A stretch of DNA of 64,000 bases from Escherichia coli (lineage in GTDB: Bacteria > Pseudomonadota > Gammaproteobacteria > Enterobacterales > Enterobacteriaceae). Numbering within the stretch: the first letter of the stretch is position 1; the number at the start of each line of letters is the position of its first letter. A program made the translations under genes and the position numbers. Positions 12,042 to 63,403 of this stretch are shown here, piece after piece. The notes under the pieces are model-generated. The model searched no databases, was not told the origin of the DNA, and saw nothing but the letters and a program-made list of their open reading frames with translations. Location: assembly GCF_009931435.1 (NCBI RefSeq), contig NZ_CP043414.1. One strand, written 5' to 3'.

Positions 12042-12670
12042 GCAGATAATTTACTCTCTACGTAATCAACCTGATTTGCCGAATCCCGCTCATCGGCGAT
12101 GATACCCCCCGTAATGCGTGGTCCTTATTTCCGATAAGTTTACTTGAGTCTTTAGCTTCCCATTTCAGCCCACTCTCCCCTGTGTGGGCTTTTTTCATTT
12201 GTCTGCTTCAGTGAGTAGCTGGCAATGCTCCATCCACTCTGCAAGGATGATAATAAGAGGATCTGATTCAGAAGAGTTTTGAAAAATTGGACCGCCATCG
12301 AGGCCTCGAACCCCGTACCATACAACAATCCTGGTTGTCGTCTGCTCTTCCTGATGAGCTAATGGCGGTTTGTGATATGAGCCTTACAGCATATTGTCTG
12401 TCAGGCTTGAGTGCGATGCGTAAGATACAGAAAAGACCCCACACAAACATGATGGAATTATGATTTTTTTCATATGAATGTCAACCAACACATTCATAAA
12501 ACACTCGCACAAGTTCACTTTTTAAGCAACATGACGCCGATCACAACAAAATATCGGCGAAAAAGGAGGGTAAATGCCATTTGACGTAGAGATAAGCAGA
12601 TGAAATGATTACCCGCTTTGCGATTCACTCTCTGATGGAATAAGAAATTGGAGATGGAAAAGTTTCTAAA

Positions 12671-29402: not shown

Positions 29403-30491
29403 TCAACCACCTGCTTTCATTACCCATTCAGAGATAAATTTATTACCCGGTACTGGCGGAGAGTACAAATAGCCCTGCAAAAAGTGAACGCCTTTGCCGA
29501 TCATTAAATCCGCCTGCTCCTGGGTTTCTACCCCTTCCGCCACGATACTCAGACCAGGCTTACGCGCCAGTTCGACAATATTGTCCACAATATGACCGGA
29601 AATTTCGTCGACACTCGCCATTTGCACAAACGACTTGTCAATTTTAATAAAATCGACCGGAAACGCCTGCAGATAACGATAGGTCGCATAACCCGTACCA
29701 AAGTCATCCAGCGCAAAGGTAATGTTGTGCTGATGAAGGCTGTCAAATATCGCTCTGGCTTCTGGCGTTACCGGAATGGGGTTGCGTTCCGTTAGCTCAA
29801 GAACCAGCTTGATTTTATCGTTACCTAATTTCTTGACCAGGTTCAGACACTCTTTTTCAAATCCTGCGGCCAAAAAACATCCTGCCGAGACGTTGATTCC
29901 AATATGGAAATTATCCGGCAGCAAATGTTTTACTGGCATCAGAATATCCGCAGTCTGTTTCATCAGCTGGCGAGTCATTATGACAATAAGACCGGATGAC
30001 TCCGCCAGAGGAATAAACTGATCCGGTGGGATAATTCCCGTTTGCGGATGTTCCCAGCGAACAAGCACTTCACAGCCCGTCAGTACCCCTGTCTGCGCGC
30101 AGAAAACGGGCTGGATCCACGGTTTGAATTCGTGATTTTCCAACGCCAGACTGATGGCTTCAGGCGTGACGATATGGTGACAACGGTTATCAGGAATATA
30201 AAAATTATTTTTATTTCCCTTGCCACTGATGACTTGCGGATGATATTGAAAAAAGATATCCCGCCAGAAAGTAATATCACTCTGGATGCCTAATTTTTCA
30301 TACAACTGCTTCTTCTGATGTGAAATTGTCTTTGCGCTACGATTTCTGTATTGTGATATTTCTGTAACCGACATTCCCTCCATTAGCAGCTTGAGTAAAA
30401 GCCGTTCTTTTTCGGACACGATACCAGGCAAGGTCAAATTAACCGTTGCCCCGAACTCTTCCAAAAAAACACTCAAATCATGCGAAGCCAT
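29403..30491 (-). CDS. pdeL: c-di-GMP phosphodiesterase with LuxR-type HTH and EAL domain (PdeL/YahA)
   Basis: N-terminal LuxR HTH (LLMEGMSVTEISQYRNRSAKTISHQKKQ) and EAL-domain motifs (ELTE, DDFGTGYA); start placed at MASHDL. Confidence 0.85.
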   Translation of the reverse strand: MASHDLSVFLEEFGATVNLTLPGIVSEKERLLLKLLMEGMSVTEISQYRNRSAKTISHQKKQLYEKLGIQSDITFWRDIFFQYHPQVISGKGNKNNFYIPDNRCHHIVTPEAISLALENHEFKPWIQPVFCAQTGVLTGCEVLVRWEHPQTGIIPPDQFIPLAESSGLIVIMTRQLMKQTADILMPVKHLLPDNFHIGINVSAGCFLAAGFEKECLNLVKKLGNDKIKLVLELTERNPIPVTPEARAIFDSLHQHNITFALDDFGTGYATYRYLQAFPVDFIKIDKSFVQMASVDEISGHIVDNIVELARKPGLSIVAEGVETQEQADLMIGKGVHFLQGYLYSPPVPGNKFISEWVMKAGG

Positions 30492-30632
30492 TGAACACAC
30501 CTTGATGAAATCTTGTGCGCCAGCTAAATCTGCTTGTCTTCACTCTAACTGATAAAGCTGACTGCAAGAAAATGACACAGAGAGCCGAATTATCTCCCGT
30601 TCGGCTCTCTCTCCTTTTACTCATTATTCAGA

Positions 30633-33600
30633 TCAGAATTGCCACTTAATGCCCACCATTGCAGAGGTGTCATTATATCCTCTATCGGCAACCTGAACGC
30701 CCACATTCCCCCAGACATTCAGGTTGGCATTTAGCTGTCCTTCCACCCCGGTTTTTATCTCAGCAATATTTCGGGCGCCATCCTGAGTGACGGAGACGCC
30801 ATCCATGCTGGTGCTGAAATCCTTACTGTTATGCAGCCAGTTCACTTCTACAAACGGCTGGAACTCGCGGGATTTACCCTCATCCATTTTATGGTGGCTC
30901 TTCAGCCAGGTTTTTACGCCAAGTCGGGTTTGAACATTGCCATCACCGTTGCTATGAACGAGGGTTCCGTTGCTTTCGCGGTGATTATCGGCTTTGACTC
31001 CCATCCAGGTAACCTGTGCTTGCGGCTGAACATACCATTCATTACGCGTTCCCTGGCTGCCATTAAATTCAGCTAATTTGTGTTTGTATCCAGCTTCCAG
31101 TGAAGCGGTAAATCCTTTTGATTTATAGGATTCACTTTGTAAGTCATCCCCTTTCACTGTGTTATCAAACCAACTGTACTGCGCCCAACTGTCGAGATAC
31201 GCGCCATTACGCGACTCGTCATCGGCATACCAGGTGGCATAGAGGCCTGTGCTATATCCGTTCACACTCGCTTTTGCACGATAACCAGTTCGCGAGGAAA
31301 TGGTTTTGCTGTCGCTGTTGCCATATCCCGCCATGACCCCAACATGCCAGCGATCGCTGCCGTTTTGGCTCCACTGCGCGATATCGCCTCCCAGTTGCAG
31401 AACATAGCGATTGCTTTGGGTTTTCAGCTGGCCGCTGCCATCACGCCATTTATTATGACCACCTTCATGGCGCATCCACATAGTGGTTTGTTTCTGCTCA
31501 CCCGTCACCATGTCGGTATAGTACGTATTACCCAGACGCTCATGCAGACGCGTGTTGAACATGGTATTCGCTGCTGCAAGGTTCGCAATGTAGCTACCCG
31601 CCTCCGGTCGCAGGTCATTATCCACATTCAGATCCGGACCCGGCGTAGGTGTCGGGTTAGGGTTCGGCTCTGGATTCGGGTTTGGCTCCGGATTCGGCAT
31701 CGGGTCGGGCTCCGGCTGCAGTTCAGGAGAATCACTGCCGCTGGTCAGATACCAGTTACCGCTATTTGCCCCCTGTCCACGCGCGAGAGTGTAGTCATAT
31801 GCCCCCGCAACGATACGCCCAGCCTGAACAAATTCGCCCTCAGACTTACCGTCTACATGGATAAGTTCGATACCGTTAAGGGTTTTCGCACCTGTACCGC
31901 CAGCGTTATTCACCGTAACGGCAGTCGTGCCGCTAGTATCGCCCTCGACAACCAATTTATCGGTTACTGAGTCATCGCCATTCAGTACCGTATTCATTAC
32001 TAGTTGACCGTTATTACCGTGGTAGTTCCCCTTCACCACCAACACGTTGCCAGCTTGCTGTCCTGACATTCCGGTCATCAGCGTACCGTTGTTGGTCAGA
32101 TTGCCACCCAGGGTGTAATTCACTGGTGCAGCCGCTCTTTTTTCAGCGCTATTATTCAGCGCCAGGGTGCCGTTGTTCTCAATGTTTGCGTTACCCATTC
32201 CCTGCGCATGACTAACCAGGACATTAGCCGAGCTAGCAATGTTCACATTCGCCGTCAGGTTGCTATTATCGCCCGCTATGTCCAGCGTGCCGCCCTGGAT
32301 ATTCAGTTCCCCGTCGCCGCTTAACGAACCGCTTGAAGTCCCCCCGTTGGCAACCGTCAGAGTGCCGCCGTTTAAGTTCAGCAACGAATCGGCGCTAGCC
32401 TTGAGCGTACCCACGGTCTGGCTGTGACCATTCATATCCAGTTCAGTCTCTGCCGCCAGACGCAGTTCATGGGTATTACCCAACACGTTATCGTTATTCA
32501 ACAAAAGCGTCCCGCTACGCAGATCGGTAACACCGGTATAGTCATTGTCTTTGTTTGAAAGCGATACGGTCTGACCTTTCTGGCTGCTGAAGGCCAGGTC
32601 ACCACTGCCGGTAACCTTTGCACTGAGATCGGCGGCATTCTCGCTCTTACCGTTGGCACTCAGCACCAGGGCGTCACTGTCGGTAGCCTGCAAATCAAGC
32701 TGGGTCAGGCCGTAACCGATATACAGACCGTCATTGTTTACCCCACTCGTCAGGCGATAATCATAAGTGCCGACGGCCGCTTTTTGCCCATTCTGCTGAA
32801 TATCACGCTGTGATCTGCTGGAGAGGATTTGCCCATTTTTATTCTGTAGTTGAAGATTACCCGCATCCCCCAGAACTTCCGCACCCTGTGCATCAACCAG
32901 CTTAATGGTGCTGTTACCATCATCGACTTCAGTGAGCGATAACGCAGAGTCAATATCACGAGAAACAGAGCGTACAACGTCACTGTCAGTAACCTGAATC
33001 ACACCCTCGCCGCGCAAATCCAGCGTTTTACTAACGTTGACCGTCCCTTCTGTCATCTGCGCGCCAGCGGCCAGGGCACCAAAATCAACGGTTCCGCCCG
33101 AGAATCCCAGAGTGCTAATGGAGTGAGCGCCCTTACCCACTGTTATCTGGCTTCCCTGACCCGCAGTGATCCCGCCTTTCTGCAGAAACTCAGCATTTTT
33201 TTCCAGGTTAAATGTCGTGTTCTGGAACGCCAGTGAACCCTGGAACCAGTCTGTATAAGCAAACTCATCGAAGGAGAATTCGTGATTCCCCATGTTTATT
33301 TCAACAATGCCTTTACCTTCAAGATCGTTATCAAATACCCAATCTTTGTTGGCATTAATTTGCAGTTTGCCATCAACATCCAGTTCTGCACGGCCGATGT
33401 TCTTATCTTCAGAAATAACAGCGACAGCATCGGAAGCGACATCAATATATCCGCTGAATGCATAGTTATTGCCGGTCAACTCCACCGTCCCACTGTCGAT
33501 ACTTATTGTACCGTTGCCGGAAATCTTATTGGCAAAGGTCATGCTATCGTCAGCCTTCAGGTGTAATTTCCCGCGGTTGGTGATTTCTGCTGTACCTATA

Positions 33601-34616
33601 TTTTGGGTGATCCCTAAAGCCCCGTTTTTCTCAATTTTGACTTTACCGCTAAAGGCGGAGTTATCCCCGGTTAAGTAAGTTGTACCATTGAGCGCATTGA
33701 TATAGCCCAGGCCCTCGCTGCCACTGACAATATCCGCGGAAATAGTCGCGTTTTTATCCGTGTGGTTTAAAGTGATTTTCTTATCTGATGTCGAAGCCCA
33801 CACAAACTCAATTTTTTCGGCATCAATAATCCCTGCCGCTTTCGCATCACTCCCTTCCTGGGCACCTAACGCCAACTCAGAGTTGGTGCTTAAACTAATA
33901 GTCGGCGCAGAAACTTTACCGCCTTCTGAAACGGCAAGTGTTGTATCGGAGTTTTGGTTATAATAGCCCAGGCTAATTTGCTTACTGGCATTAACTTCAC
34001 CGCCGTTATTAACTGACAGGTACTGATTACCACCGTAACTGCTGTAAACGCCCATAAAGAAGGTTTCAGAATTTACCTGGCTGCCTTCACCACTGACATT
34101 TCCCTGCAAATAGGTCAGACGACTGGTGCCCTTAACATGGATTTTGCCGCCATTGGAGACGTTAAAATAGCCGCGATCATGCCAGGAGCCGGAGTTTGAG
34201 TCATATAAATCATCTGCATACAACTCACTACCAGCATTGGAGACGTTCAGGAAACCTGTACCTTTCAGCAGGACGTCAAGCTGACCATTGATATACACTT
34301 TCCCTCCGGTGATATCCAATCCACCACCAGAATTGAGCGTAAAGCGTGGACGCGAGGTGTCTGTTACGTTAATAACCAGATTAGCATTATCAGTCACCGT
34401 AATACGGTAATCGATGTTCTGATCGGTTTTGCCGTAATCAACAGTCTTATCCTGGTTCACGATGAAATCACCAGAGAACGCCAGAGATGAATATAAACTT
34501 ATCGCGCTAATTAAAACAGCCCGGGACTTTTTTCCTTTTACTCTGCTCCCCAGCTCCGAGCAGACGCTCCAACAGTTACGGGACCTGTTCCACTTTAGCC
34601 GATATATTTTATTCAT
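30633..34616 (-). CDS. ehaA: AIDA-I-type (type Va) autotransporter adhesin, 1327 aa (EhaA-like)
   Basis: Extended signal peptide MNKIYRLKWNRSRNCWSVCSELGSRVKGKK...; long Gly/Asn/Thr-rich beta-helix passenger; Pro-rich linker PEPDPMPNPEPNPNPEPNPNPTPTPGP; C-terminal beta-barrel ending in aromatic ...GIKWQF. Symbol is from recall of EHEC EhaA size and locus. Confidence 0.8.
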   Translation of the reverse strand: MNKIYRLKWNRSRNCWSVCSELGSRVKGKKSRAVLISAISLYSSLAFSGDFIVNQDKTVDYGKTDQNIDYRITVTDNANLVINVTDTSRPRFTLNSGGGLDITGGKVYINGQLDVLLKGTGFLNVSNAGSELYADDLYDSNSGSWHDRGYFNVSNGGKIHVKGTSRLTYLQGNVSGEGSQVNSETFFMGVYSSYGGNQYLSVNNGGEVNASKQISLGYYNQNSDTTLAVSEGGKVSAPTISLSTNSELALGAQEGSDAKAAGIIDAEKIEFVWASTSDKKITLNHTDKNATISADIVSGSEGLGYINALNGTTYLTGDNSAFSGKVKIEKNGALGITQNIGTAEITNRGKLHLKADDSMTFANKISGNGTISIDSGTVELTGNNYAFSGYIDVASDAVAVISEDKNIGRAELDVDGKLQINANKDWVFDNDLEGKGIVEINMGNHEFSFDEFAYTDWFQGSLAFQNTTFNLEKNAEFLQKGGITAGQGSQITVGKGAHSISTLGFSGGTVDFGALAAGAQMTEGTVNVSKTLDLRGEGVIQVTDSDVVRSVSRDIDSALSLTEVDDGNSTIKLVDAQGAEVLGDAGNLQLQNKNGQILSSRSQRDIQQNGQKAAVGTYDYRLTSGVNNDGLYIGYGLTQLDLQATDSDALVLSANGKSENAADLSAKVTGSGDLAFSSQKGQTVSLSNKDNDYTGVTDLRSGTLLLNNDNVLGNTHELRLAAETELDMNGHSQTVGTLKASADSLLNLNGGTLTVANGGTSSGSLSGDGELNIQGGTLDIAGDNSNLTANVNIASSANVLVSHAQGMGNANIENNGTLALNNSAEKRAAAPVNYTLGGNLTNNGTLMTGMSGQQAGNVLVVKGNYHGNNGQLVMNTVLNGDDSVTDKLVVEGDTSGTTAVTVNNAGGTGAKTLNGIELIHVDGKSEGEFVQAGRIVAGAYDYTLARGQGANSGNWYLTSGSDSPELQPEPDPMPNPEPNPNPEPNPNPTPTPGPDLNVDNDLRPEAGSYIANLAAANTMFNTRLHERLGNTYYTDMVTGEQKQTTMWMRHEGGHNKWRDGSGQLKTQSNRYVLQLGGDIAQWSQNGSDRWHVGVMAGYGNSDSKTISSRTGYRAKASVNGYSTGLYATWYADDESRNGAYLDSWAQYSWFDNTVKGDDLQSESYKSKGFTASLEAGYKHKLAEFNGSQGTRNEWYVQPQAQVTWMGVKADNHRESNGTLVHSNGDGNVQTRLGVKTWLKSHHKMDEGKSREFQPFVEVNWLHNSKDFSTSMDGVSVTQDGARNIAEIKTGVEGQLNANLNVWGNVGVQVADRGYNDTSAMVGIKWQF

Positions 34617-35188
34617 CACAATCTCCAGCAATACATCCAAATAAAACTAAGATTGCATAAACAGCAACGCATTAAATGCCATTCCGGTTACTGTTCATCG
34701 CATATAAAAATTCAAAAATTTTGCATAGCATTGACAACCACATATCTGAGTATGTAGTTCAGAGGGTAATAAAATAGCAAGTTACTACTGAAAACTTATT
34801 TTAAGTTAACACTATTAACTTTATCATTACATTCCACCCAGTCTCGAATACATGCGCATTATATGTATCCAGGAACTCAAATCAACTCAAAATATAAACA
34901 AAAGCAGGAGGAATACATTTAATATACAGCCGGTAAAAGTGGTAACTCTTATTAGGTATCAAAATATAAGAATCGTCTTATTAATAAATATATAACTCTA
35001 TAGGACTGAATCCATTCAGCTAATGCAAAATAAAATCGTTAATTAATAAAATATAAAATCATGAAGTGATACAAGAGGAATTGCAGGATATGACATGACA
35101 ATCATATATAATATATGCATAATTTTTTACAGCGAGTCAATGATTTCCGCGCCATATGCAGACATGGCGCGGTTTTATGCAAAAATAA

Positions 35189-37222
35189 TCACACGTCCGG
35201 GAACATTACGCTATTACCCGGCGCTTCACGATGGAGATGGATAAAGTTTAGGTGCCGCTCGTACTGATCGAGAATATCGGTGATCACCTGCTCTTTGCTG
35301 TAGTCCATCAGGTCGTTGCCCTGGCTGCCTTCTAACAGGAAGGTTTCCAGCCGGTAGTAGGTCGATTTACCGCTACGTGCGCGGTAGGTAAAGCCCGGCA
35401 CCGAATATTGCTGCGGCCAAATCTGATAGACAAAGTTTTGCTCTTCGCCCATATGCACCAACAAATCCAGATGCCCCAACTGTTGTCCCTCTTCCGGCGG
35501 CAGGCTTTTTAGCTCCACGTACGCGCCGCGCAACCGCAGCTCCTGCGCCACTTCTTCCATTGCCGGGTAACAGACCGTCTCCATCATCTGTTTAGTGTAA
35601 CGCGTGCCCGGATAATTCATCAGGCGCGAGAGACGTTTTTTCCAGCTCAGGCGATCCTGAAGCCCCAGCGGTCGCGGCGCGGTATCACGGTTGGCACTTT
35701 CACGGCGGTAATCTTCTACCTTCAGAGATTTATACAATCCCGCCATCACGAAGAAAATCACAAAGCTGAACGGCAGCCCCATGATTACCGTGGTGTTTTG
35801 CAGCGCGGATATCCCGTTGGTCATCAGCATGCCAAGCGTCAGCAGACCAATGGCAACCGACCAGAAGACACGCAGCCAGCCCGGCGCGTCGCTGTTGATA
35901 TCTTTAAGCTGCGAGGTGAAATTCCCCAGCACCAGCGCCCCGGAATCCGCCGAAGTTACGTAGAACAGCAAGCCAGTGATGGTGGCAACCGAGGCGCTAA
36001 AGGTAAATGCCGGATATTGCGCCAGCAGGCTGTAGAAGCCGCGCTCCGGATGGACCATCGCTTCCTCGGCAAATGCCGCGCCGCCGTGGATGATTTCATA
36101 CAGCGCGCTATTGCCGAATACCGAGAGCCATAACAGCGTGAAGGTAAACGGAATAATCAACGTGCCCAGCACGAACTGGCGAATGGTACGCCCGCGCGAG
36201 ATACGCGCCAGGAACAGGCCGACAAACGGCGACCATGCCACCCACCATGCCCAGAAGAAGAGCGTCCAGTTATTCATCCACTCAACCGGACGGTCGAAGG
36301 CAAAACTGTTGAGCGTCATTCCCATAAAGCGATTCACATAGTCGCCAACGTTCAGCACCAGCGCATTAAGCAGGAACGAGGTGTCGCCCATAAACAGCAC
36401 GAACAGGATCAACCCCAGCGCCAGCGCAACGTTGAGTTCCGATAACACGCGAATGCCCTTATCGACACCGGAGGTGACAGAGATCGTTGCGATGATCACC
36501 GACAAGGCGATCAGTGCCGCTTTCGCCGCCATCGAATCGGGAATATCAAACAGTACGCTCAAGCCATAGTTAAGCTGCACCACGCCAATACCGAGCGTGG
36601 TCGCAATACCGAAAATGGTGCCGATTACCGCCGCGATATCTACCGTGTGACCAATCGGCCCGTTGATCCGTTTGCCGAAAATAGGATACAGCGCCGAGCG
36701 GATCGTGAGCGGTAAATCATAACGATAGCTAAAGTATCCAAGCGCCATGCCCATCAGCGCATACATCGACCAGCCGGTTAAGCCGTAGTGAAACAGCGTC
36801 CAGACCATCGCCTGACGCGCGGCCTCAATTGTCTGTCCCGCGCCTTCCGGCGGCTGCATATACTGCGTGACCGGCTCAGCAACGGAGAAGAACATCAGAT
36901 CAATACCAATCCCGGCAGCGAACAGCATCGCCGCCCAGCTCAGTAGACTGAATTCCGGTTTGGATTGTTCAGGCCCGAGCTTCACCGAACCAAAACGCGA
37001 ACAAGCGATGCAGACCACAAAGACAATATAGAGCGTTGCCGCCAGCAGATAGTACCAACCGAAGGTTTTAGAAACCCAGTCCAGCGTGCGGCCAATCCAC
37101 AGGGCCGAGAAGTCGCGAAACAGGATCGTTGTCAGGGAAAACAACAAAATCAGTCCGGCGGAGGTGTAAAACACCACCGGATTGATTTTGTCCTTTTCCC
37201 TGCTGTGCGAAAGGTCTGTCAT
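35189..37222 (-). CDS. betT: Choline transporter (BCCT family)
   Basis: 677-aa polytopic ORF with the BCCT-type Trp-rich segment (WTLFFWAWWVAWSPFVG); synteny with betIBA. Confidence 0.93.
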   Translation of the reverse strand: MTDLSHSREKDKINPVVFYTSAGLILLFSLTTILFRDFSALWIGRTLDWVSKTFGWYYLLAATLYIVFVVCIACSRFGSVKLGPEQSKPEFSLLSWAAMLFAAGIGIDLMFFSVAEPVTQYMQPPEGAGQTIEAARQAMVWTLFHYGLTGWSMYALMGMALGYFSYRYDLPLTIRSALYPIFGKRINGPIGHTVDIAAVIGTIFGIATTLGIGVVQLNYGLSVLFDIPDSMAAKAALIALSVIIATISVTSGVDKGIRVLSELNVALALGLILFVLFMGDTSFLLNALVLNVGDYVNRFMGMTLNSFAFDRPVEWMNNWTLFFWAWWVAWSPFVGLFLARISRGRTIRQFVLGTLIIPFTFTLLWLSVFGNSALYEIIHGGAAFAEEAMVHPERGFYSLLAQYPAFTFSASVATITGLLFYVTSADSGALVLGNFTSQLKDINSDAPGWLRVFWSVAIGLLTLGMLMTNGISALQNTTVIMGLPFSFVIFFVMAGLYKSLKVEDYRRESANRDTAPRPLGLQDRLSWKKRLSRLMNYPGTRYTKQMMETVCYPAMEEVAQELRLRGAYVELKSLPPEEGQQLGHLDLLVHMGEEQNFVYQIWPQQYSVPGFTYRARSGKSTYYRLETFLLEGSQGNDLMDYSKEQVITDILDQYERHLNFIHLHREAPGNSVMFPDV

Positions 37223-37286
37223 CCAGTATCCCCACTGTTATTGTTACCATTTAAAATCAAATTAGTAACAATTAAGACACATTTTA

Positions 37287-37306
37287 TATTGAACGTCCAA
37301 TCAATA
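37287..37306. promoter_or_regulatory. Candidate BetI operator palindrome in the betT-betI divergent promoter region
   Basis: Perfect inverted repeat TATTGA-ACGTCCAA-TCAATA in the 128-bp intergenic region. Confidence 0.45.
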
Positions 37307-37350
37307 ACGGCTTTAATAGATTAACAACGCTGATGAATGGAGTGGCAAAA

Positions 37351-37938
37351 ATGCCCAAATTGGGGATGCAGTCGATCCGGCGCAGACAACTGATCGACGC
37401 CACGCTGGAAGCAATAAATGAAGTAGGTATGCACGATGCGACGATCGCGCAGATTGCCCGCCGGGCGGGCGTTTCCACCGGGATCATTAGCCACTATTTC
37501 AAAGATAAAAATGGTCTGCTGGAAGCAACCATGCGTGATATCACCAGCCAGCTGCGTGACGCGGTCTTGAACCGCTTACACGCGCTACCGGATGGCAGCC
37601 CTGAGCAGCGATTACAGGCGATTGTTGACGGAAATTTCGATGAGACTCAGGTCAGTAATGCTGCGATGAAAGCCTGGCTGGCGTTTTGGGCCAGCAGTAT
37701 GCATCAGCCGATGCTTTACCGTTTGCAGCAGGTGAGCAGCCGCCGCTTGTTGTCGAATCTGGTGAGCGAATTTCACCGCGAGTTACCGCGCAAAGAGGCA
37801 CAGGAGGCAGGTTATGGCCTGGCCGCGCTGATTGACGGTTTATGGCTGCGCGCGGCATTGAGCGGTAAACCGCTGGATAAACCTCTCGCACACTCGCTCA
37901 CCCGCCACTTTATCACTCAGCATTTACCCACCGATTAA
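37351..37938 (+). CDS. betI: TetR-family repressor of the bet regulon
   Basis: TetR HTH ([21 protein letters not shown]); start placed at MPKLGM. Confidence 0.9.
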
Positions 37939-37951
37939 CCGAGGAGACGTG

Positions 37952-39424
37952 ATGTCCCGAATGGCAGAACAGCAGCTTTATATACATGGTGGTTATACCT
38001 CCGCCACCAGCGGTCGCACCTTCGAGACCATTAACCCGGCCAACGGTAACGTGCTGGCGACCGTGCAGGCCGCCGGGCGTGAGGATGTCGATCGCGCCGT
38101 GAAGAGCGCCCAGCAGGGGCAAAAAATCTGGGCGGCGATGACCGCCATGGAACGCTCGCGCATTCTGCGTCGGGCCGTTGATATTCTGCGCGAACGCAAT
38201 GACGAACTCGCTAAACTGGAAACCCTCGACACCGGGAAGGCGTATTCAGAAACCTCAACCGTCGATATCGTTACCGGCGCGGACGTACTGGAGTACTACG
38301 CCGGGCTGATCCCGGCGCTGGAAGGCAGCCAGATCCCGCTACGCGAGACGTCGTTTGTTTATACCCGCAGTGAACCGCTGGGCGTGGTCGCCGGAATTGG
38401 CGCATGGAACTACCCGATTCAGATTGCTTTGTGGAAATCCGCTCCGGCACTGGCCGCAGGCAACGCGATGATATTCAAACCGAGCGAAGTTACCCCGCTT
38501 ACCGCGTTAAAGCTGGCTGAAATCTACAGCGAAGCGGGCCTGCCGGACGGCGTATTTAACGTGTTGCCGGGCGTAGGTGCGGAAACCGGGCAGTATCTGA
38601 CCGAGCATCCGGGCATCGCCAAAGTGTCGTTTACCGGCGGCGTCGCCAGCGGCAAAAAGGTGATGGCTAACGCGGCGGCCTCTTCCCTGAAAGAGGTGAC
38701 CATGGAGCTGGGCGGTAAATCGCCGCTGATCGTTTTCGACGATGCAGACCTCGATCTCGCCGCCGATATCGCCATGATGGCGAACTTCTTTAGCTCCGGT
38801 CAGGTGTGTACCAATGGCACCCGCGTCTTCGTTCCGGCGAAATGCAAAGCCGCGTTTGAGCAGAAAATACTGGCGCGCGTTGAACGCATTCGCGCGGGCG
38901 ACGTTTTCGATCCGCAAACCAACTTTGGCCCGCTGGTCAGCTTCCCGCATCGCGATAACGTGCTGCGCTATATCGCCAAAGGTAAAGAGGAAGGCGCACG
39001 CGTGCTCTGCGGCGGCGATGTGCTGAAGGGTGATGGCTTCGATAACGGCGCATGGGTTGCACCGACCGTGTTCACCGATTGCCGCGACGAAATGACTATC
39101 GTGCGCGAAGAGATCTTCGGCCCGGTGATGTCGCTCCTCACGTATGAGTCTGAAGACGAAGTGATTCGCCGCGCCAATGATACCGACTACGGTCTGGCGG
39201 CGGGTATCGTCACGGCGGATCTGAACCGCGCGCATCGCGTCATTCATCAGCTGGAAGCCGGCATTTGCTGGATCAACACCTGGGGAGAATCCCCGGCGGA
39301 GATGCCCGTTGGCGGTTACAAACACTCCGGCATTGGCCGCGAGAACGGCGTGATGACGCTCCAGAGTTATACCCAGGTGAAGTCCATCCAGGTTGAGATG
39401 GCTAAATTCCAGTCCATATTCTAA
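37952..39424 (+). CDS. betB: Betaine aldehyde dehydrogenase (NAD-dependent ALDH family)
   Basis: ALDH motifs (ELGGKSP, catalytic Cys in [13 protein letters not shown]). Confidence 0.93.
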
Positions 39425-39437
39425 CCAGGAGGTTTAT

Positions 39438-41126
39438 TTGCAATTTGACTACATCATTATTGGCGCCGGCTCTGCCGGCAACGTCCTCGCGACACGTCTG
39501 ACTGAAGATCCGAACACTACCGTGCTGCTGCTTGAAGCGGGCGGCCCGGACTATCGCTTTGACTTCCGTACCCAAATGCCCGCTGCGCTGGCGTTCCCGC
39601 TACAGGGTAAACGCTATAACTGGGCGTATGAGACCGAGCCGGAACCGTTTATGAACAACCGTCGCATGGAGTGCGGACGCGGTAAGGGGCTTGGTGGATC
39701 ATCACTGATCAACGGCATGTGTTACATCCGTGGTAACGCGCTGGATCTCGATAACTGGGCGAAAGAACCCGGTCTGGAGAACTGGAGCTACCTCGACTGT
39801 CTGCCCTACTATCGCAAGGCCGAGACTCGCGATGTGGGCGAGAACGACTACCACGGCGGTGATGGCCCGGTGAGCGTCACCACCTCCAAACCCGGCGTCA
39901 ATCCGCTGTTTGAAGCGATGATTGAAGCGGGCGTGCAGGCGGGCTACCCGCGCACGGACGATCTCAACGGCTATCAGCAGGAAGGTTTTGGCCCGATGGA
40001 TCGCACCGTCACGCCGCAGGGCCGTCGCGCCAGTACCGCGCGCGGTTATCTCGATCAGGCCAAATCGCGCCCTAACCTGACGATTCGTACTCACGCTATG
40101 ACCGATCACATCATTTTTGACGGCAAACGCGCGGTGGGCGTCGAGTGGCTGGAAGGCGACAGCACCATTCCGACCCGCTCGGCGGCGAATAAAGAAGTGC
40201 TGTTATGTGCAGGCGCGATTGCTTCACCGCAGATCCTGCAACGCTCCGGCGTCGGCAACGCTGGACTGCTGGCGGAGTTTGATATTCCGCTGGTGCATGA
40301 ATTACCTGGCGTCGGCGAAAATCTTCAGGATCACCTGGAGATGTATCTGCAATATGAGTGCAAAGAACCGGTTTCCCTCTACCCTGCCCTGCAGTGGTGG
40401 AATCAGCCGAAAATCGGTGCGGAGTGGCTGTTTGGCGGCACCGGCGTGGGTGCCAGCAACCACTTTGAAGCAGGTGGATTTATCCGCAGCCGTGAGGAAT
40501 TTGCGTGGCCGAACATTCAATACCACTTCCTGCCGGTAGCGATTAACTACAACGGCTCGAATGCGGTGAAAGAGCACGGTTTCCAGTGCCACGTTGGCTC
40601 AATGCGCTCGCCAAGCCGTGGGCATGTGCGGATTAAATCCCGCGACCCGCACCAGCATCCGGCGATTTTGTTTAACTACATGTCGCACGAACAGGACTGG
40701 CAGGAGTTCCGCGACGCGATTCGCATCACCCGCGAGATCATGCATCAACCGGCGCTGGATCAATACCGTGGCCGCGAAATCAGCCCCGGCGCGGAATGCC
40801 AGACAGATGAGCAGCTCGATGAGTTTGTGCGTAATCACGCCGAAACCGCCTTCCACCCATGCGGTACGTGCAAAATGGGGTACGACGAGATGTCCGTTGT
40901 GGATGGCGAAGGCCGCGTGCACGGGCTGGAAGGATTACGCGTAGTCGATGCGTCAATTATGCCGCAGATCATCACCGGCAATCTGAACGCCACGACCATT
41001 ATGATTGGCGAGAAAATGGCGGATATGATTCGCGGACGAGAAGCGTTGCCCAGAAGTCTGGCGGCGTATTTTGTGGCGAATGGGATGCCAGTAAGAGCGA
41101 AAAAACTGAATCGCGATTTGAACTAA
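39438..41126 (+). CDS. betA: Choline dehydrogenase (GMC oxidoreductase, FAD-dependent)
   Basis: FAD-binding GxGxxG ([15 protein letters not shown]); start placed at the TTG at 39438, which has an AGGAGG 7 nt upstream; the longer ATG-initiated ORF from 39393 overlaps betB. Confidence 0.88.
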
Positions 41127-41330
41127 CGCAGGAACTTACAAGATTGAGAGTTACCGTTCTACGATAAGGACCGAATCCTTATATAAAAAACATAGGTAAC
41201 TCTCATGCTTCATATCCAGTATTCATGATGCTGGTTTTTTGCTGATGTTTTTACCAGAATATTCCTGATACAGACTATTAATTCAAGCTTATCTGCGACA
41301 GATTTCATTTTCTGGATATATTATGAGTGA

Positions 41331-41833
41331 CAAATCAAACAGGATATCGATCTGATTGAAATTTTATTTTATCTGAAGAAAAAGATTCGTGTTATTCTGT
41401 TTATTATAGCTGTTTGTATGACAATGGTGCTATTATTTCTGTACATCAATAAAGACAATATAAAGCTGAGTTACAGCCTAAAAATAAACCACACAACATC
41501 AGGCATACTTGTAAGCTGTGATAGCAATAATAACTTTGCCTGTCAGACCACAATGACTGAAGATGTTATTCAGCGAATTACGAGTTTTTTAGACCAGTAC
41601 TAATGCTAAAAATTGCCTTGTCAAAAAAATGGTAGATGAATACAAACAAAACTCTGGGCAGTAATAAACAGCATTCTGATAGAGAGTGCCTGTATAAAGC
41701 TGAAGTGACAATGACCGGGAAGGGAGCCCGTCTTCAGGAATGGATTCCTGTCTTTTTCACTGTAAATATCCTGGCATTATTAATGTCAGGATATTTACAG
41801 AAGAGCAGCATAACCATGACGGAACGGGGTTAA
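41331..41833 (+). pseudogene. Possible degraded gene for a small membrane protein (frameshifted fragments)
   Basis: ATG at 41333 opens a short frame (MSDKSNRISI*) that continues after a +1 shift into ...LIEILFYLKKKIRVILFIIAVCMTMVLLFLYINKD... (ORF ending 41603), followed by another fragment at 41636..41833; AT-rich. Confidence 0.25.
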
Positions 41834-41906
41834 GTCAGGTTGTCCTTAACGCTATTCACAACCTCGTATACCGCCTTCAGGTTTATGTCCAGACTTCATA
41901 TCTCTC

Positions 41907-42602
41907 TCAGCAATCCTCAATAATCAGATACACCGCTTTCACCGGACCATGAACCCCGACGACTTTGATAAGCTCAATGTCCGCCGTTGAACTAGGACCA
42001 CTGATGATGTTAATACATGACGGCATTCGTTCACCGGCCTGCGCTTTCTGATGCAATTTTTCTGCGAGTTGCGCTACACGCGGCAGGATTGTGCTTTTAC
42101 GCAGGATAAAAAGAGAAGATTCCGGGAGCAGGCTCAATGAACGCCCGCGCCCGGCGGCGGAAAAAAGAACCACGCCACCCGATTCGGTTAAACCATATTC
42201 AGCATATACGACGCCCACTTTAGCCTGCTCTGCTTGTGATATGTTCTCAATACCTTTCGCCGGATCCCAAACAACGGCATTGCATTCCTGCTGCAAACGT
42301 TCGCTAATCCCCAATTCCTCCAGCCTCGTGTCACCGCTAATCACGACCGACTGCTCTCCCAGCTCTTTACACAGACATATTGCAGCTTCTGCGGCCTGCG
42401 CCTCGCTGGTCAGTTCACAGCGCGTCAACATAACATCGCTGGCAAACTGGATAAACGCGTCACAGCGCTGCTGTTGGTTAAGTTCGGTAAGCCGCTCGTT
42501 AGCATAGTTGTTAAGCGGCGCATCTTCTGCTTGCGGTTCAAGTCGCTGCGGGCGACCCAGTGCCTGAGCAACGTTATTCAAAAATTCGCTCCGATTATCC
42601 AT
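41907..42602 (-). CDS. ykgG: LutC-like lactate utilisation protein (YkgG)
   Basis: Start placed at MDNRSEFL (52nd codon of the 282-aa ORF), giving 231 aa and an 8-nt overlap with ykgF. Confidence 0.75.
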   Translation of the reverse strand: MDNRSEFLNNVAQALGRPQRLEPQAEDAPLNNYANERLTELNQQQRCDAFIQFASDVMLTRCELTSEAQAAEAAICLCKELGEQSVVISGDTRLEELGISERLQQECNAVVWDPAKGIENISQAEQAKVGVVYAEYGLTESGGVVLFSAAGRGRSLSLLPESSLFILRKSTILPRVAQLAEKLHQKAQAGERMPSCINIISGPSSTADIELIKVVGVHGPVKAVYLIIEDC

Positions 42603-44022
42603 TCTTTTTCTCCTGCGCCTGATGTTTCTTAAACCAACTACGGAAACTCTCTCCGTCAGCTTCAGGAAGATCGCGTGCTTCCATCCAGTCGCTAATCGCG
42701 CCAAATTTGAGTGGTGTTTTGCCGCCATTGATAAACCAGCTTGCCGCATGAGCACCAGCCATCATCCCGACTTTCCACAATCCTGGATGACTATTGGCAT
42801 AAGCGAACATTTTTATCGCCCGTTGCTCTGCTTTTGCGGTGATCCCTTTTTCAGCCATCACCCGACGATGACGCAAAATCAGTTTTGACAGCGGAATACG
42901 CACCGGACACACGCTGTCACAAGCTGTGCATAAAGAGCAGGCGTAGGGTAAATCTTTAAAATCTTTATAGCCGCCAAGTAACGGGGAAATCACCGCACCA
43001 ATTGGCCCTGGATAAATAGAGCCATATCCATGACCGCCAATATGGCGATATGCCGGACAAGTATTCATACAAGCCCCGCAGCGAATACAGCGCAGCACAT
43101 CCCGAAATTCAGAAGCCAGCACCTCAGAACGCCCGTTATCGACAATAACCAGATGAAACTCTTCAGGACCATCAACGTGCCCCGCTTCGCGCGGTCCTGT
43201 CAGCCAGGTGTTGTATCCCGTCAAACGTGCACCAACGGCACTGCGCGCCAGCATGGTGATCAATACATCTACCTCGGCAAACGTGGGGGCAATACGCTCC
43301 ATTCCCATCACTGCAATATGCGTTTTAGGCAGCGTGGTACACATTCGCGCATTACCTTCATTGGTCACCAGGCATACCGAACCGGTCTCTGCCACCGCGA
43401 AATTACAGCCGGTAATACCTATTTCAGCACTGAGGAAATCTTCGCGGATTTTTTGCCGAATGAATAAGGTCATCGCTTCAGGCGTTTCCGGCCCCTCATA
43501 ACCCAGACGTTCGTGTAGCACTCGACGGATCTGATGGCGATCTTTATGAATTGCCGGGACCACAACATGAGAGGGCGGATCTTGATCCAGCTGGAGAATG
43601 TATTCACCCAGATCGGTTTCAATCACCTGAATACCAGCATCCTGCAACACATGATTGACACCAATCTCTTCGGTCACCATCGATTTAGATTTCACCACCT
43701 TCCGGGCATTTTTGCGTTGGGCGACCTGTAAAATGTAGCGGGTGGCGTCTTCTTTGGTTTTTGCAAAATAGACGTGACCGCCGTTTTGCGTCACTTTTTC
43801 AGAGAGCTGGTACAGATAAGCGTCGAGATTACTCAGAACATGATCACGTATCTGGGCGGCCCGGTCGCGCCACTCCTCCCAGTGCCCTAATTCATCGACC
43901 ATTTTTTGCCGATTTGCCCCAATACGCTGCTGCGCGTTTGCCACCGCTTTGCGCATGATCGGATCTTCAATTTGCTGACGGATGCGTGTCTTAAAATCTG
44001 TATTACTGGTTTTGATCGACAT
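42595..44022 (-). CDS. ykgF: LutB-like iron-sulfur protein, 4Fe-4S ferredoxin-type (YkgF)
   Basis: 475 aa with two Cys clusters CIRCGACMNTCPAY and CSLCTACDSVCP. Confidence 0.85.
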   Translation of the reverse strand: MSIKTSNTDFKTRIRQQIEDPIMRKAVANAQQRIGANRQKMVDELGHWEEWRDRAAQIRDHVLSNLDAYLYQLSEKVTQNGGHVYFAKTKEDATRYILQVAQRKNARKVVKSKSMVTEEIGVNHVLQDAGIQVIETDLGEYILQLDQDPPSHVVVPAIHKDRHQIRRVLHERLGYEGPETPEAMTLFIRQKIREDFLSAEIGITGCNFAVAETGSVCLVTNEGNARMCTTLPKTHIAVMGMERIAPTFAEVDVLITMLARSAVGARLTGYNTWLTGPREAGHVDGPEEFHLVIVDNGRSEVLASEFRDVLRCIRCGACMNTCPAYRHIGGHGYGSIYPGPIGAVISPLLGGYKDFKDLPYACSLCTACDSVCPVRIPLSKLILRHRRVMAEKGITAKAEQRAIKMFAYANSHPGLWKVGMMAGAHAASWFINGGKTPLKFGAISDWMEARDLPEADGESFRSWFKKHQAQEKKNG

Positions 44023-44032
44023 CTTTATATCC

Positions 44033-44752
44033 TCAGCGGCTCATCAGCACTTCAGCAATATGCATCACTTTGACTTTCTGCCCTTCCCGTTGTAATCGTC
44101 CACTGATGTTCAGCAGGCAACTCACGTCAGCACCAATTAAATACTCAGGGCGGACTTCCATCAGGTGCGCAACCTTTTCTTTCACCATCTCGCCGGATAT
44201 TTCGGCCATTTTGACCGAGAACGTGCCGCCAAATCCGCAGCAGGTATCCTGTTCAGCAAAGGTCAACAGCTCCAGTCCACGCACATTTTTCAGCAGCGTA
44301 AGTGGCTCGTCCTTCACCCCCAGCTTACGGGCCAGGCTACAAGATGGGTGATACACCGCTCTCCCTTGCAAACTGGCACCTACATCGACTACCCCTAATG
44401 TATTAACAATAAAAGAGGTGAGATCCTGCATACGCGCGGCAACCTTTTCGGCACGTGATGCCCATTCAGGCTCATCCGCCAGATACGTTGGGTAACTTTT
44501 TACGGCATAGGTACAGGAGCCAGCCGGTGAAATAATGGGATCGTCGTTATCCTCCAGTGCGGCGATCAGATTTTTCATCCCTGGAATCGCTTCTTTGATA
44601 TAACCACTATTGATCGCAGGCTGACCGCAGCATCCCTGTTTCTCCGGGAAATTTACGCGACAGCCGAGTTTTTCCAGTAGCAGCACGGAGTCTCGTGCCA
44701 TTCTTGATTTCAGGGCGTCACCAATACAGGTGACAAAGAAATTGACATTCAC
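44033..44752 (-). CDS. ykgE: LutA-like Cys-rich (CCG domain) oxidoreductase subunit (YkgE)
   Basis: 239 aa with CCG-type cysteine motifs (GCCGQP, TCCGFGG). Confidence 0.85.
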   Translation of the reverse strand: MNVNFFVTCIGDALKSRMARDSVLLLEKLGCRVNFPEKQGCCGQPAINSGYIKEAIPGMKNLIAALEDNDDPIISPAGSCTYAVKSYPTYLADEPEWASRAEKVAARMQDLTSFIVNTLGVVDVGASLQGRAVYHPSCSLARKLGVKDEPLTLLKNVRGLELLTFAEQDTCCGFGGTFSVKMAEISGEMVKEKVAHLMEVRPEYLIGADVSCLLNISGRLQREGQKVKVMHIAEVLMSR

Positions 44753-45269
44753 AACTAATACTCCATTACTTCATGCCCATTTATGCCCGATGCTTCCCCC
44801 CACCTGGGGATCAATCATCAATAAATATGGCGTTCTTTTTTAATTGGCTAGCAACATACCACCCCTCATTTGTATGACAAATGATAATCTTTCATCCAAA
44901 CTTCAAATGCAATAACTAATTTTATTTCTTTCGGCATCGCTCACATTTTATAGGGAAATCGACGATCATTTTTGGCATAAGAAATTCATTTAAAAAGGCC
45001 ACATCCCTTATACCTATTCAGAGCTACTTATTCAGGGGTTGTTGAGATATACAATGATGGTGTACTAACAAAATCACCGGCAATAATCAGGTATCAAGTA
45101 ATAGTCGGCATTTTATTTAATTAAAGCAATTTAGTTTGCGTTTTTATTTACATACTGGGCCTGCATTCTTCAAAAAAACATATAAAACACAGTTGGAAAT
45201 AGAAATAGTTGAAAGGCTCACAACACCCGGAATGCTGATTATCTTTGCTCCGATTCCTGGCGGTTTTAT

Positions 45270-50880: not shown

Positions 50881-53800
50881 TTATTTCATCGCCTCCTCGC
50901 CCGTTGCCGTATTGGCATCCACCGCGGTAATGGTCACCGTCACTGGCTTCATTTCGTACCCGCCATAGGTCAGGGCGTTAAATGTGAACGTATAGACACC
51001 AGGCTTGCTGGTACTAAATGTACGCGTGATTTTTCCGCTCACGAAATGGTCATTTTTCGACGGCAGGAACTGATAATCCTTCTCCGTCACCCCTTCCGGC
51101 GTCTGAATGTCGACCCACATATTCCCGCCAACGGGGTTATTTGCCGACATCAGGGTCACCTCCAGCTTCGCAGTCGATTTCCCATCCGCCACCAGCGAAG
51201 GCACATTAGATGATGCGGTGAGCTGCGCGTTTTTATCATCCGCGACGAATTTAGCTTCGGCGGTTTTCGTTGATACCTGACCGTTGTTCTGACTCACTTG
51301 CGCCGTGAGTGTATATGTCGCCGCAACAGTCGTGGTGGCGGTGAAAATAGCCTGCCCTTGCTCATTCGTTGTCGCAGTGCCATTCGGTTCCAGGTTTAAC
51401 GAAGCCGGGCTGGCGGTCAGCGTCACTTCGCTATCTTTCACCAAATTCTTATTGGCATCAGTCACCGTAACTTTATACGTTTGTTTGGCTTTGCCGTCCG
51501 CCAGTGCATAGTTGCCAATCACCTCAATACTGGAGACGGTTGCGGTAGCCTTATCGGCTACAAACGTTATAGTCTGCGTATTCGAAGGCTGGCTATTCCC
51601 TGCCGATGCCGTGATCTCATACGTTCCGGCAGTCACTGAAACCACCTGCAACTCTGCTTTCCCCTCATCGTTGGCTTTCACCCAGACATTATCGCCAGTA
51701 AGCGGCTTGACACCCCGGGGCAGATTAAATGTCACCAGAGTTCCTGGAACAGGGTTACCGTTTTTATCCTCAACGGTCGCCGTCAGCGTAAAGGCATCTT
51801 TGCCGTTTGCCACTTTTTGAACGGCGGTGTCTACCTGCAGGTTTGCCTGACCGGTGCTGGCATCCGCGTTGAATTTCACCGTGACCGTCTTCTGAGAGTT
51901 TTTCACCGCGGCCGCGATTTCAAGTTCCCCTGCAACGGTTGATATCAACTCAATATCCGCTTTACCTGCCGCATTGGTTGTTACTGTATTCCCCGTCTTG
52001 CTAGTCACACCCTGCGGTAAAGTCAGCGTAACTTCTTGCCCCTGCAACGGGTTACCATAGCTGTCCACGACGGTCAGGGTTACCTGGTTAGCAGACTGTC
52101 CATTTGCCAGTTGGTTATTCACCTTCACCGCCATATCACTGATCACTGCCCGGGAAGCGTCGCCTGCAACATTCAGCACCAATGGCTGAGCAACGGCATT
52201 TTGGCCGTTCACGCGTGGCATGACAGACAACTGACCTGCAGCCGATCCCAGCGTTAAGGTCGCCACGTAGACCCCATTACCTTTCTCTGTCCAGTTACCT
52301 GCTGAAGGACGCTCACTCCCCGTGCTGGCGGCACCGCTAAACACGGGTGCATCGAGTTTCAGGTTACTAACAGGGTTGCCATACGCATCCTTCACGGTGA
52401 AGGTAAGTTCCGTCGTCGTTTTAACCGTTGGAGTCTTATTGTCCGCAACAAGCGTAGAGTTCGCTGATGACATCTCCCCGGCGATGACCGTCAACTGCGC
52501 GGCTTCGGTGGCTGCTGGCTGGCCGTTGAAGAGCGGCATGACACGAAGTTCGCCCGTCTTTCCGCCTGTGGTCAACGTAGCAACATAGGAACCGTCACCT
52601 TTTTCGGTCCAACTGGAAATAGTCGCCCCTTCAGAGGCGGTCCCCGTCAAACTTGCCGACAACGAAAGACCACTGATAGCGTTGCCATGCGCATCTTTCG
52701 CCACCAGCGTCACGGTTGTGCTTTCGCCTGCTTTTACGCGATCTGCGGCTACAGACACTGTCGACTGGCCTGAAGATAACGCATCAGCCACCACGGTTAC
52801 TTTTGCCGCGTTTGCTGCCGCATCCTGTCCATTTAGCTTCGGCATAACTTCTAATTCACCCGCCGTAGAGCCGAGAGTAATCTGCGCAGTCCACGTCCCA
52901 TCACCATTATTTGTCCAGCCAGATGCCGTAGAACCAGCAGCTGCTGCGCCCGATAATGACGGTGCATCCGGATTGAGGCCTGTTACAGGGTTGTCATTGG
53001 CATCTTTTGCCGTCCAGATTGCCGTAAGCGTACCGCCGACCACCGGTTTATCAGGATTCAGGGTGATGGACGAGTGTGCTGCATCAAGCGGCCCGGCAAC
53101 GAACTTCAGCGTTTGTTGTAATGTGCCCAGCTGATACTGCTCGCTGAAGGCACGCACAACAACGTTTCCGGCACGGGTCGAAGAAACCGTGGCGCTGTAA
53201 ACCCCTGGTTTTATTTCCGAAATGGCACCAACGGTTACACCATTAGTGTCTTGCGGAACAAGTCGCAGGCGGCTGGCTTCTCCCGTCACCGGATTACCCT
53301 CGGAGTCCACCGCTGTCAGTGTCAGCGTGTAGGCTTGCTGACCATCAGCAACCACGTCACCTGACGGCTCGTTAGCGCTCAGGGTGGAGTTTGCCACATC
53401 CATCATCGTGGCCCGCAGTTCTGCAGTGACGGTTTTGCTCATGCCATCAACGCTAACAGTAATCGTTGCCTCACCTGACTGCGTTCCGGTCGTAAAGACA
53501 GACTGGTACACCCCTGCTTCAGTTTCGGTGAACTCACCCAGTGTGGGTTTTGCCTGTGATTTAGTGGCCTTCAGGGTACGAGTCACAATATTTCCAGCCG
53601 GTTTGAAGGATAGTTCAGTCTTGATCTGATCTTTCATGCCCTTGACTGGCTGGCCCTCTGCGTCGCGCAGAGACAGCACCAGCGGCTTTTGCTCATTACC
53701 GTTAGCAAGCATTTGAATACGGCTCTGACCGTCAAGCGTTAACGCCGTACGATCGGCGCTCATACCAGCTCCGCTAATAACCACTTCTGTCTGCACACGT

Positions 53801-62791: not shown

Positions 62792-63403
<612 letters not shown>

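Follow-up and report, generated by a model that had tools for sequence, protein, structure and literature searches.

The ehaA locus

The window analysed here, a 64,000-nt stretch of Escherichia coli DNA to which all positions refer, carries on its minus strand a large autotransporter gene between pdeL and betT. Judged by its sequence, this gene is the orthologue of ehaA, the adhesin gene of O island 15 (OI-15) in enterohaemorrhagic E. coli (EHEC) O157:H7. The locus is composed of the following elements.

29403..30491, minus strand: pdeL, ehaA-linked allele, encoding a c-di-GMP (cyclic di-GMP) phosphodiesterase with a LuxR-type helix-turn-helix (HTH) and an EAL domain (NCBIfam EAL matches)
30492..30632, minus strand: ehaA-pdeL spacer, 141 nt, alignment columns 89% identical on average in four Escherichia lineages
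30633..34616, minus strand: ehaA coding sequence, 1327 codons plus a TGA stop at 30635-30633 (open reading frame list, identity to WP_001491890, RefSeq annotation of the syntenic gene)
34623..34626, minus strand: Shine-Dalgarno GGAG, 6 nt 5' of the ehaA ATG (sequence)
34617..35188, minus strand: AT-rich betT-ehaA spacer, 572 bp, 30.9% GC versus 49.4% for the window (composition)
35189..37222, minus strand: betT, the neighbour on the other side of ehaA

The open frame (30633..34640, minus strand) opens at a TTG and spans 1335 aa. The ATG at 34616 is the likely start, and yields a protein of 1327 aa, equal to the RefSeq-annotated length of EhaA. Aligned with O157:H7 EhaA (WP_001491890), this protein was identical at 1267 of 1327 residues (95%) with zero gaps, and no internal stop or gap was found in the gene relative to its O157:H7 counterpart. 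The 60 substitutions cluster in residues 1-300 and 700-900, with four in the last 427 residues. Gene order in the window, yahD-yahC-yahB-pdeL-ehaA-betT, reproduces the O157:H7 setting, where ehaA is the sole gene of OI-15 (PMC8565820), and was also the same in a Vietnamese isolate. The outer neighbours are yahB, yahC and yahD past pdeL, and betI and betB past betT. A 4.9-kb segment was matched over its full length in 1385 of 5426 complete E. coli genomes, and every case among the listed genomes was annotated pdeL, 'autotransporter adhesin EhaA' and betT. The position of ehaA beside pdeL is kept in O157:H7, isolate 2017-02-2CC, E. whittamii and E. albertii.

The original prediction, made from the sequence alone, had proposed an intact 1327-aa type Va autotransporter between pdeL and betT, resembling EHEC EhaA, and a placement directly beside pdeL that is relevant to biofilm and adhesin control. 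The open reading frame, free of stops and gaps, and the recovery of all the named domains bear out the first point. The second is supported by the 95% ungapped identity and the OI-15 position (PMC8565820), and the gene belongs to a known class. As for the third, the link between ehaA and pdeL is real, and tighter than plain adjacency.

The host chromosome seems to belong to a divergent Escherichia lineage: among the 5426 complete E. coli genomes the best reaches no more than 98.0% identity to the window and most lie at 90-95%, and E. whittamii is 91.9% identical, an observation made for the whole window, and for the bet region at 35189-45000.

Architecture of the EhaA protein

The segments of the predicted protein, from the N-terminus to the C-terminus, are listed below.

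34473..34616, minus strand: extended signal peptide, residues 1-48 (Pfam ESPR PF13018, residues 1-41, E 1.4e-9)
31737..34472, minus strand: passenger, residues 49-960, right-handed beta-helix (AlphaFold2 model and Foldseek)
31785..32102, minus strand: autochaperone, residues 839-944 (Pfam AC_1 PF18883, E 3.6e-28 / 1.2e-28)
31638..31736, minus strand: Pro-rich linker, residues 961-993, SDSPELQPEPDPMPNPEPNPNPEPNPNPTPTPGPD (translation)
30636..31616, minus strand: translocator, residues 1001-1327, alpha-helical plug plus beta-barrel (Pfam, TIGR01414, 4MEE)

The ESPR is followed by a hydrophobic core and an A-F-S motif, and by the -3/-1 rule the signal peptide would be cleaved after A-F-S48. The AlphaFold2 model of residues 49-960, built on a 15-sequence alignment, had a mean predicted local distance difference test score (pLDDT) of 89.5 and consisted nearly entirely of short strands. 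Its top Foldseek matches in the PDB were the passengers of IcsA, Ag43, Hap, IgA1 protease, Hbp and pertactin. At the sequence level, a match to solved structures in the PDB was looked for in residues 49-760 and none was found. The autochaperone matched IcsA 3ML3 with an E value of 2e-29 and a Foldseek TMt of 0.78. The Pfam search, run on the protein in two halves, also gave two weak PATR repeats and a Pertactin-like stretch. The Pro-rich linker is partly encoded by an 18-nt/12-nt tandem repeat at 31652-31697.

The translocator matched Autotransporter PF03797 over residues 1046-1305 (E 1.9e-47) and TIGR01414 (E 1.4e-125). It aligned end to end, without gaps, with the AIDA-I transport unit 4MEE (E 1e-72, about 38% identity), and the protein ends in ...GIKWQF, with the aromatic final residue of the beta-signal recognised by the beta-barrel assembly machinery (BAM). 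A model of residues 859-1327 built from six sequences was of low confidence (pLDDT 53) and usable for fold search only; its matches were 4MEE (TMt 0.83), BrkA, EspP, Hbp and NalP. Translocators of this type are described as 12-stranded barrels (PMC9289746), and a 12-strand barrel is predicted for EhaA by homology to 4MEE rather than by a direct strand count.

All the marks of a type Va autotransporter were thus present: an ESPR signal peptide, a beta-helical passenger with its autochaperone, a barrel with a helical linker and an aromatic end. Each element named in the original prediction (extended signal peptide, beta-helix passenger, Pro-rich linker, C-terminal barrel, aromatic end) was found, and the BLASTP and domain checks that it had proposed turned up neither of the two observations that were to count against it, an absent barrel or an internal stop. 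In the mechanism that we propose, EhaA would be exported by Sec through its ESPR-extended signal peptide, and its AIDA-I-like C-terminal barrel, bearing the aromatic beta-signal, would be inserted in the outer membrane. The passenger of about 910 residues would then cross this membrane, fold into a right-handed beta-helix nucleated by the autochaperone, and remain on the cell surface. That this EhaA orthologue works as a type Va adhesin is close to certain. Surface display, aggregation, biofilm and adhesion to bovine rectal cells are reported for the O157:H7 protein only (PMC8565820, PMC5854682).

Relationship of EhaA to AIDA-I and to IcsA

The gene had been described as AIDA-type, which proved appropriate for the translocator, given its match to 4MEE, and not for the passenger, which goes with IcsA, MisL and ShdA. 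The sequence matches of the passenger were to IcsA (3ML3, E 2e-29; 5KE1, E 5e-28), and partial NCBIfam matches were obtained to MisL, ShdA and YfaL, all of them far under the family cut-offs. If EhaA were instead a self-associating autotransporter like AIDA-I, Ag43 or TibA, its main role would be glycosylation-dependent cell-cell aggregation. Such a role would agree with AIDA-I being the closest translocator, with the Ag43 passengers among the fold matches, and with the aggregates formed when O157 EhaA was overexpressed in K-12 (PMC8565820, citing Wells 2008). Against it, the NCBIfam AIDA-I model covers only residues 1001-1327, with 341 bits for a cut-off of 1200, the passenger sequence matches go to IcsA, and in a published phylogeny EhaA falls in Group 8, together with IcsA, MisL and ShdA, and AIDA-I in Group 4 (PMC9289746). 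Furthermore, no open reading frame of at least 80 aa was present between ehaA and either betT or pdeL, and therefore no adjacent gene for a heptosyltransferase of the Aah/TibC type (aah/tibC). We consider this alternative very improbable, and retain a type Va adhesin with a passenger of the IcsA/MisL/ShdA group on an AIDA-I-like translocator.

A set of autotransporters of 1425-1457 aa from public assemblies (proteins P0017-P0029), of which P0025 and P0029 carry an NCBI E. coli label, have passengers 44-67% identical to that of EhaA. This group looks like a related but separate family.

Two haplotypes between betT and pdeL

In K-12, betT is directly followed by pdeL, with 874 bp between them. 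Homology between K-12 and the window ends 40 nt past the betT stop, at the end of a hairpin, and restarts 14 nt before the pdeL start. At the segment that differs K-12 holds an 820-bp block of its own, so that the locus is a two-state polymorphism rather than a simple insertion. This block is carried by about 3656 complete E. coli genomes, in two subtypes. BLAST and local alignment with ehaA plus flanking sequence detected no ehaA remnant in it. One feature marks the left edge of the differing segment.

35147..35172, no strand assigned: hairpin just past betT, at the left edge of the segment differing between ehaA-type and K-12-type loci (terminator-like scan)

In ehaA-type loci this hairpin has its T-run on the plus strand, which is not the strand of betT, whereas in K-12 the hairpin is followed by TGTTTCTCC. 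Termination of betT transcription before the ehaA promoter region may be weak.

The polymorphism reaches into pdeL, the first 120 codons or so being divergent (positions 3672-4031 of the K-12 locus L003). Between K-12 and O157:H7, pdeL DNA showed 73-91% identity over the first 375 nt or so past the restart of homology, then 96-100%. At the protein level, 26 of the first 104 residues of PdeL differ between the window and K-12, and the proteins are nearly identical afterwards. The HTH core is almost unchanged between the two types, and K60 is kept.

Comparison with other species gave a direction to this polymorphism. E. whittamii was found by an exact-peptide scan of genome contigs, which missed E. 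albertii; the latter was found via a protein search. The order in E. whittamii is ykgEFG, betA and betT remnants, ehaA-pdeL-yahBCD, and in E. albertii ykgFG, a LysR gene, an aldo-keto reductase gene, ehaA-pdeL-yahBCD. E. whittamii has lost betABIT, and 3' remnants of betA and betT lie upstream of ehaA (L004 4084-4239, and 4394 onward); the LysR regulator and aldo-keto reductase genes of E. albertii stand at the place of bet (L011 1183-3235). Homologues of ehaA have been reported in all or most surveyed E. albertii strains (PMC11420993). In all, three further Escherichia lineages had ehaA at this locus, and the spacer from ehaA to pdeL measured 141-143 nt across lineages, E. whittamii and E. 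albertii included. Both outgroups carry the ehaA-type N-terminal residues of PdeL, which makes the K-12-type PdeL the outlier.

The original prediction regarded ehaA as inserted and horizontally acquired, a view that the comparison contradicts. The locus lacked the typical signs of a genomic island: a deviating composition, genes for mobility, flanking tRNA genes or repeats, and a patchy distribution. The GC content of the ehaA coding sequence is 0.498 versus 0.494 for the window. No tRNA gene or significant repeat flanks ehaA, the repeat search giving only short AT-rich pairs, and the only other open reading frames of at least 80 aa in the segment are antisense ones inside ehaA. Because its GC is window-like, because E. 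whittamii and E. albertii share the arrangement and the spacer, and because the PdeL of K-12 is the outlier, ehaA is not a recent insertion. We conclude from these comparisons that ehaA-pdeL would be the ancestral Escherichia arrangement and the K-12 haplotype without ehaA the derived one. The local divergence of about 20% points either to an import of the K-12 haplotype or to its great age.

A Cra box and a predicted promoter core shared with K-12 pdeL

The long AT-rich region beside ehaA that had been noticed earlier was confirmed as the 572-bp spacer, which contains one of the two lowest-GC 500-nt stretches of the window. It had been said to follow the gene, which is true only in plus-strand coordinates; since ehaA is on the minus strand, the spacer lies upstream of it. 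It contains the following elements.

35004..35020, minus strand: Cra box GCTGAATGGATTCAG(TC), the box itself at 35006-35020, 17 of 17 nt identical to the K-12 'CB/CDB' oligonucleotide
34858..34885, minus strand: predicted promoter core, TTGATT-16 nt-TATAAT(GCGC), which matches the core assigned to K-12 pdeL
34617..34851, minus strand: predicted ehaA 5' untranslated leader of about 235 nt, deduced from the position of the -10 hexamer

In K-12, pdeL is reported to be activated by Cra and by PdeL and repressed by H-NS, and the Cra box, the Cra-dependent and Cra-independent PdeL boxes (CDB and CIB) and the likely promoter were located there from the primer table of this Jenal laboratory preprint (bioRxiv 10.1101/2021.10.01.462762). 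Two islands only, the Cra box and the -35/-10 core, are invariant between the K-12-type and the ehaA-type spacers. The first is the 17-mer GCTGAATGGATTCAGTC, identical at 17 of 17 positions in K-12 and the window, and present with one mismatch in the E. albertii box. It is the core of the 'CB CDB' oligonucleotide, which joins the Cra box to the neighbouring CDB and is bound by Cra with a Kd (dissociation constant) of 49 nM (bioRxiv 10.1101/2021.10.01.462762). The Cra box occurs once in the window. The second island reads TATTTT.AGTTGAT.TG, 13 non-conserved nt, then CATATAATGC(GC), and its core block is invariant in K-12, N3, the window, O157, E. whittamii and E. albertii. Of the sigma-70-like sites on the minus strand in the 5.1 kb from 30300 to 35400, this core scored highest, at 10 of 12. 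Between the Cra box and the -10 block lie 158 nt in K-12, 155 nt in the window and in O157:H7, 156 nt in E. whittamii and 157 nt in E. albertii.

Outside and between the islands, alignments of K-12 with ehaA-type spacers scored like shuffles (z<1.1). A shared word of at least 17 nt was obtained in none of 300 dinucleotide-preserving shuffles, in which the maximum was 15. The spacer had been taken for a generic foreign adhesin promoter; this does not fit with the Cra box and promoter core that it shares with K-12 pdeL. The ehaA transcription start is predicted near 34851. A search of 30300-35400 against Rfam families gave only a chance miRNA match and no known leader RNA, and a repeat search for an invertible switch of the UpaE type in the upstream spacer gave only short AT-rich pairs.

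The K-12 small-protein gene yahV (L003 3103-3177) ends within the Cra box, in sequence that is not conserved in ehaA-type loci. At the equivalent place the window has an unrelated 25-codon open reading frame (35043-35120, minus strand). The same Cra box and promoter, with an EhaA 94% identical to that of the window, were met on JAIJJM010000200.1, a 5.1-kb contig labelled 'MAG: Collinsella sp.', which is probably misbinned Escherichia DNA.

Possible control of ehaA and pdeL

Because the Cra box and core match a module known in K-12 as the pdeL promoter, ehaA would, with somewhat better than even chances, be transcribed from this Cra-box promoter and activated by Cra. In the proposed scheme, the Cra box lying about 160 nt upstream of the TTGATT-16-TATAAT core would drive ehaA. 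The predicted operator stands upstream of the core and is identical to the K-12 site that binds Cra. Silencing by H-NS over the AT-rich spacer is fairly probable; the AT content and the repression of the K-12 counterpart point to it.

The short spacer that separates ehaA from pdeL has one notable feature.

30579..30610, minus strand: hairpin of 11-12 bp past the ehaA stop, then GUGUCAUUUUCUU (RNA fold)

The stem of this hairpin is conserved in O157, E. whittamii and E. albertii, and it is possibly a weak terminator or an attenuator. No sigma-70-like site was found in the scan of the minus strand of the spacer, including the 80 nt or so between the hairpin and pdeL. A hairpin combined with the lack of a promoter-like site leaves two options, namely read-through, or a conserved non-canonical pdeL promoter. 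In the case of read-through, a fraction of the ehaA transcripts would pass the conserved hairpin into pdeL; that some transcripts do so is a tentative proposal, to which we give somewhat less than even odds.

As a whole, an ancestral EhaA autotransporter behind a Cra-box promoter module, with pdeL downstream, is very probably the best explanation of the locus. The comparisons establish what the gene is, its domain layout, its synteny and the conservation of the cis-elements, and from there we infer the choice of promoter, the control by Cra and H-NS and the passage into pdeL. A number of points weigh against it, or against parts of it. For the protein, the count of 12 strands was taken from 4MEE because the model of EhaA's own barrel was too weak (pLDDT 53). 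For the promoter, the second island appears to be the K-12 pdeL promoter as judged from the positions of the RNA polymerase-recruitment reverse primer and of the 'P1' mutagenesis primer, and the Cra box, some 160 nt from the core, stands further upstream than suits a simple activator. The H-NS motif TCGATAAATT, with at most two mismatches allowed, had no match in 34617-35188, and its count in the window was that expected by chance. CIB lies in a stretch of about 206 nt of K-12 that the alignment left unmatched in ehaA-type spacers, and CDB is changed, from CTTAATGAG in K-12 to CCTATAGAG here. Finally, most transcripts may end at the hairpin past ehaA, and the highly conserved spacer may conceal a pdeL promoter missed by the scan.

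Since CIB is unmatched and CDB altered, control of ehaA by PdeL is doubtful, and we regard it as rather unlikely. In K-12, binding of PdeL at CDB is reported to require Cra (bioRxiv 10.1101/2021.10.01.462762). Among ehaA-type loci, the only candidate for a CIB-like PdeL palindrome was a poor match inside betT, and it was discarded.

Alternative explanations

Two other accounts of the locus deserve to be weighed. If ehaA were an acquired island, OI-15, inserted between betT and pdeL with its own H-NS-silenced promoter, the adjacency to pdeL would be incidental. The gene is indeed described as an O island (PMC8565820), it has an AT-rich upstream spacer, and K-12 and about 3650 complete E. coli genomes lack the gene and carry the 820-bp block in its place. 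Yet its GC equals that of the window, and it is accompanied by no tRNA gene, flanking repeat or further open reading frame of at least 80 aa, apart from the antisense ones. Its spacer to pdeL and the arrangement are kept in E. whittamii and E. albertii despite a different gene on the other side of ehaA, the N-terminus of PdeL is the outlier in K-12, and the spacer holds the Cra box and core of the K-12 pdeL promoter. This makes a recent acquisition unlikely.

The likeness of the Cra box and core might itself be due to convergence or chance, in which case the ehaA promoter would be unrelated to that of K-12 pdeL, and pdeL would be read from a promoter of its own within the 141-nt spacer. A Cra box is a short palindrome, and the remainder of the two upstream spacers is dissimilar; moreover, the conservation of the ehaA-pdeL spacer is unusually high, as would suit a spacer with its own regulatory role, and a hairpin lies 3' of ehaA. 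What speaks for a common origin is that the 17-nt identity includes non-consensus flanks and is accompanied by a 12-nt identity, in the same order and at 155 versus 158 nt, that 17 nt was reached in 0 of 300 shuffles, that E. albertii keeps both blocks, 157 nt apart, and that no promoter-like site was seen in the 141-nt spacer. We therefore hold chance to be a highly improbable origin of the likeness, and favour a promoter module shared by ehaA and K-12 pdeL.

Significance for the K-12 pdeL promoter

The EhaA gene is already known, and the promoter relationship to K-12 pdeL is a modest, testable addition. The literature search found no paper linking ehaA with pdeL/yahA, the original EhaA paper and several pdeL papers being outside its coverage. 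It likewise found no account of an ehaA promoter, of its expression or of its transcription, including in a cra mutant, again with the original EhaA paper outside coverage, and no title or abstract retrieved for ehaA plus H-NS addresses ehaA regulation.

It is conceivable, although we would not put it at even chances, that ehaA and pdeL formed an ancestral Escherichia unit under one Cra-box promoter, and that the K-12 'pdeL promoter' is the ehaA promoter left after loss of the adhesin. If so, metabolic state, via Cra, and possibly the PdeL switch, would set adhesin display together with c-di-GMP breakdown, and this joint control would concern about a quarter of E. coli, as well as E. albertii and E. 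whittamii. What has been studied in K-12 as the bistable, c-di-GMP-sensing pdeL switch would then be a natural adhesin-phosphodiesterase unit in truncated form. The comparison itself recasts OI-15 as an ancestral gene lacking in K-12, and not as an EHEC acquisition. It also yields a concrete and cheap hypothesis on the regulation of ehaA.

Other features of the window

A second large adhesin gene is present in the window: an intact 1417-aa inverse autotransporter at 50881-55134 (minus strand), with an intimin/IatC-like N-terminal domain and the size of EaeH/FdeC. A tRNA-Ser(GGA) gene lies at 12288-12368 (minus strand), and the lowest-GC stretch of the window, at about 29% GC, is located around 62200-62800.

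Comparison with known systems

EhaA is widely used as a surface display scaffold. The closest known system is the EhaA of O157:H7 (Z0402/ECs0362, 'AIDA15'), which has the same length, domain order, neighbours, upstream spacer and downstream hairpin. It differs by the 60 substitutions, and the host chromosome here is that of a divergent Escherichia lineage. Overexpression of the O157:H7 protein leads to aggregation and biofilm formation, and it binds bovine rectal epithelial cells (PMC8565820; PMC5854682). It also contributes to adherence in pig ileal loops (PMC8565820; PMC5854682).

AIDA-I shares with EhaA the helix-plus-barrel transport unit, but there is no passenger match, the phylogenetic group is another one, and ehaA has no adjacent glycosyltransferase gene. 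Among the Group 8 adhesins (IcsA/VirG, MisL, ShdA, YfaL), the structures of IcsA resemble the autochaperone and distal passenger of EhaA, whereas the family scores are below cut-off and residues 49-760 of EhaA match no solved structure. Finally, the K-12 pdeL promoter region shares with the window an identical 17-nt Cra box and, at about the same spacing, the -35/-10 core. The difference is that the module in the window precedes ehaA, with pdeL 4.3 kb further downstream, and that the leaders are unrelated.

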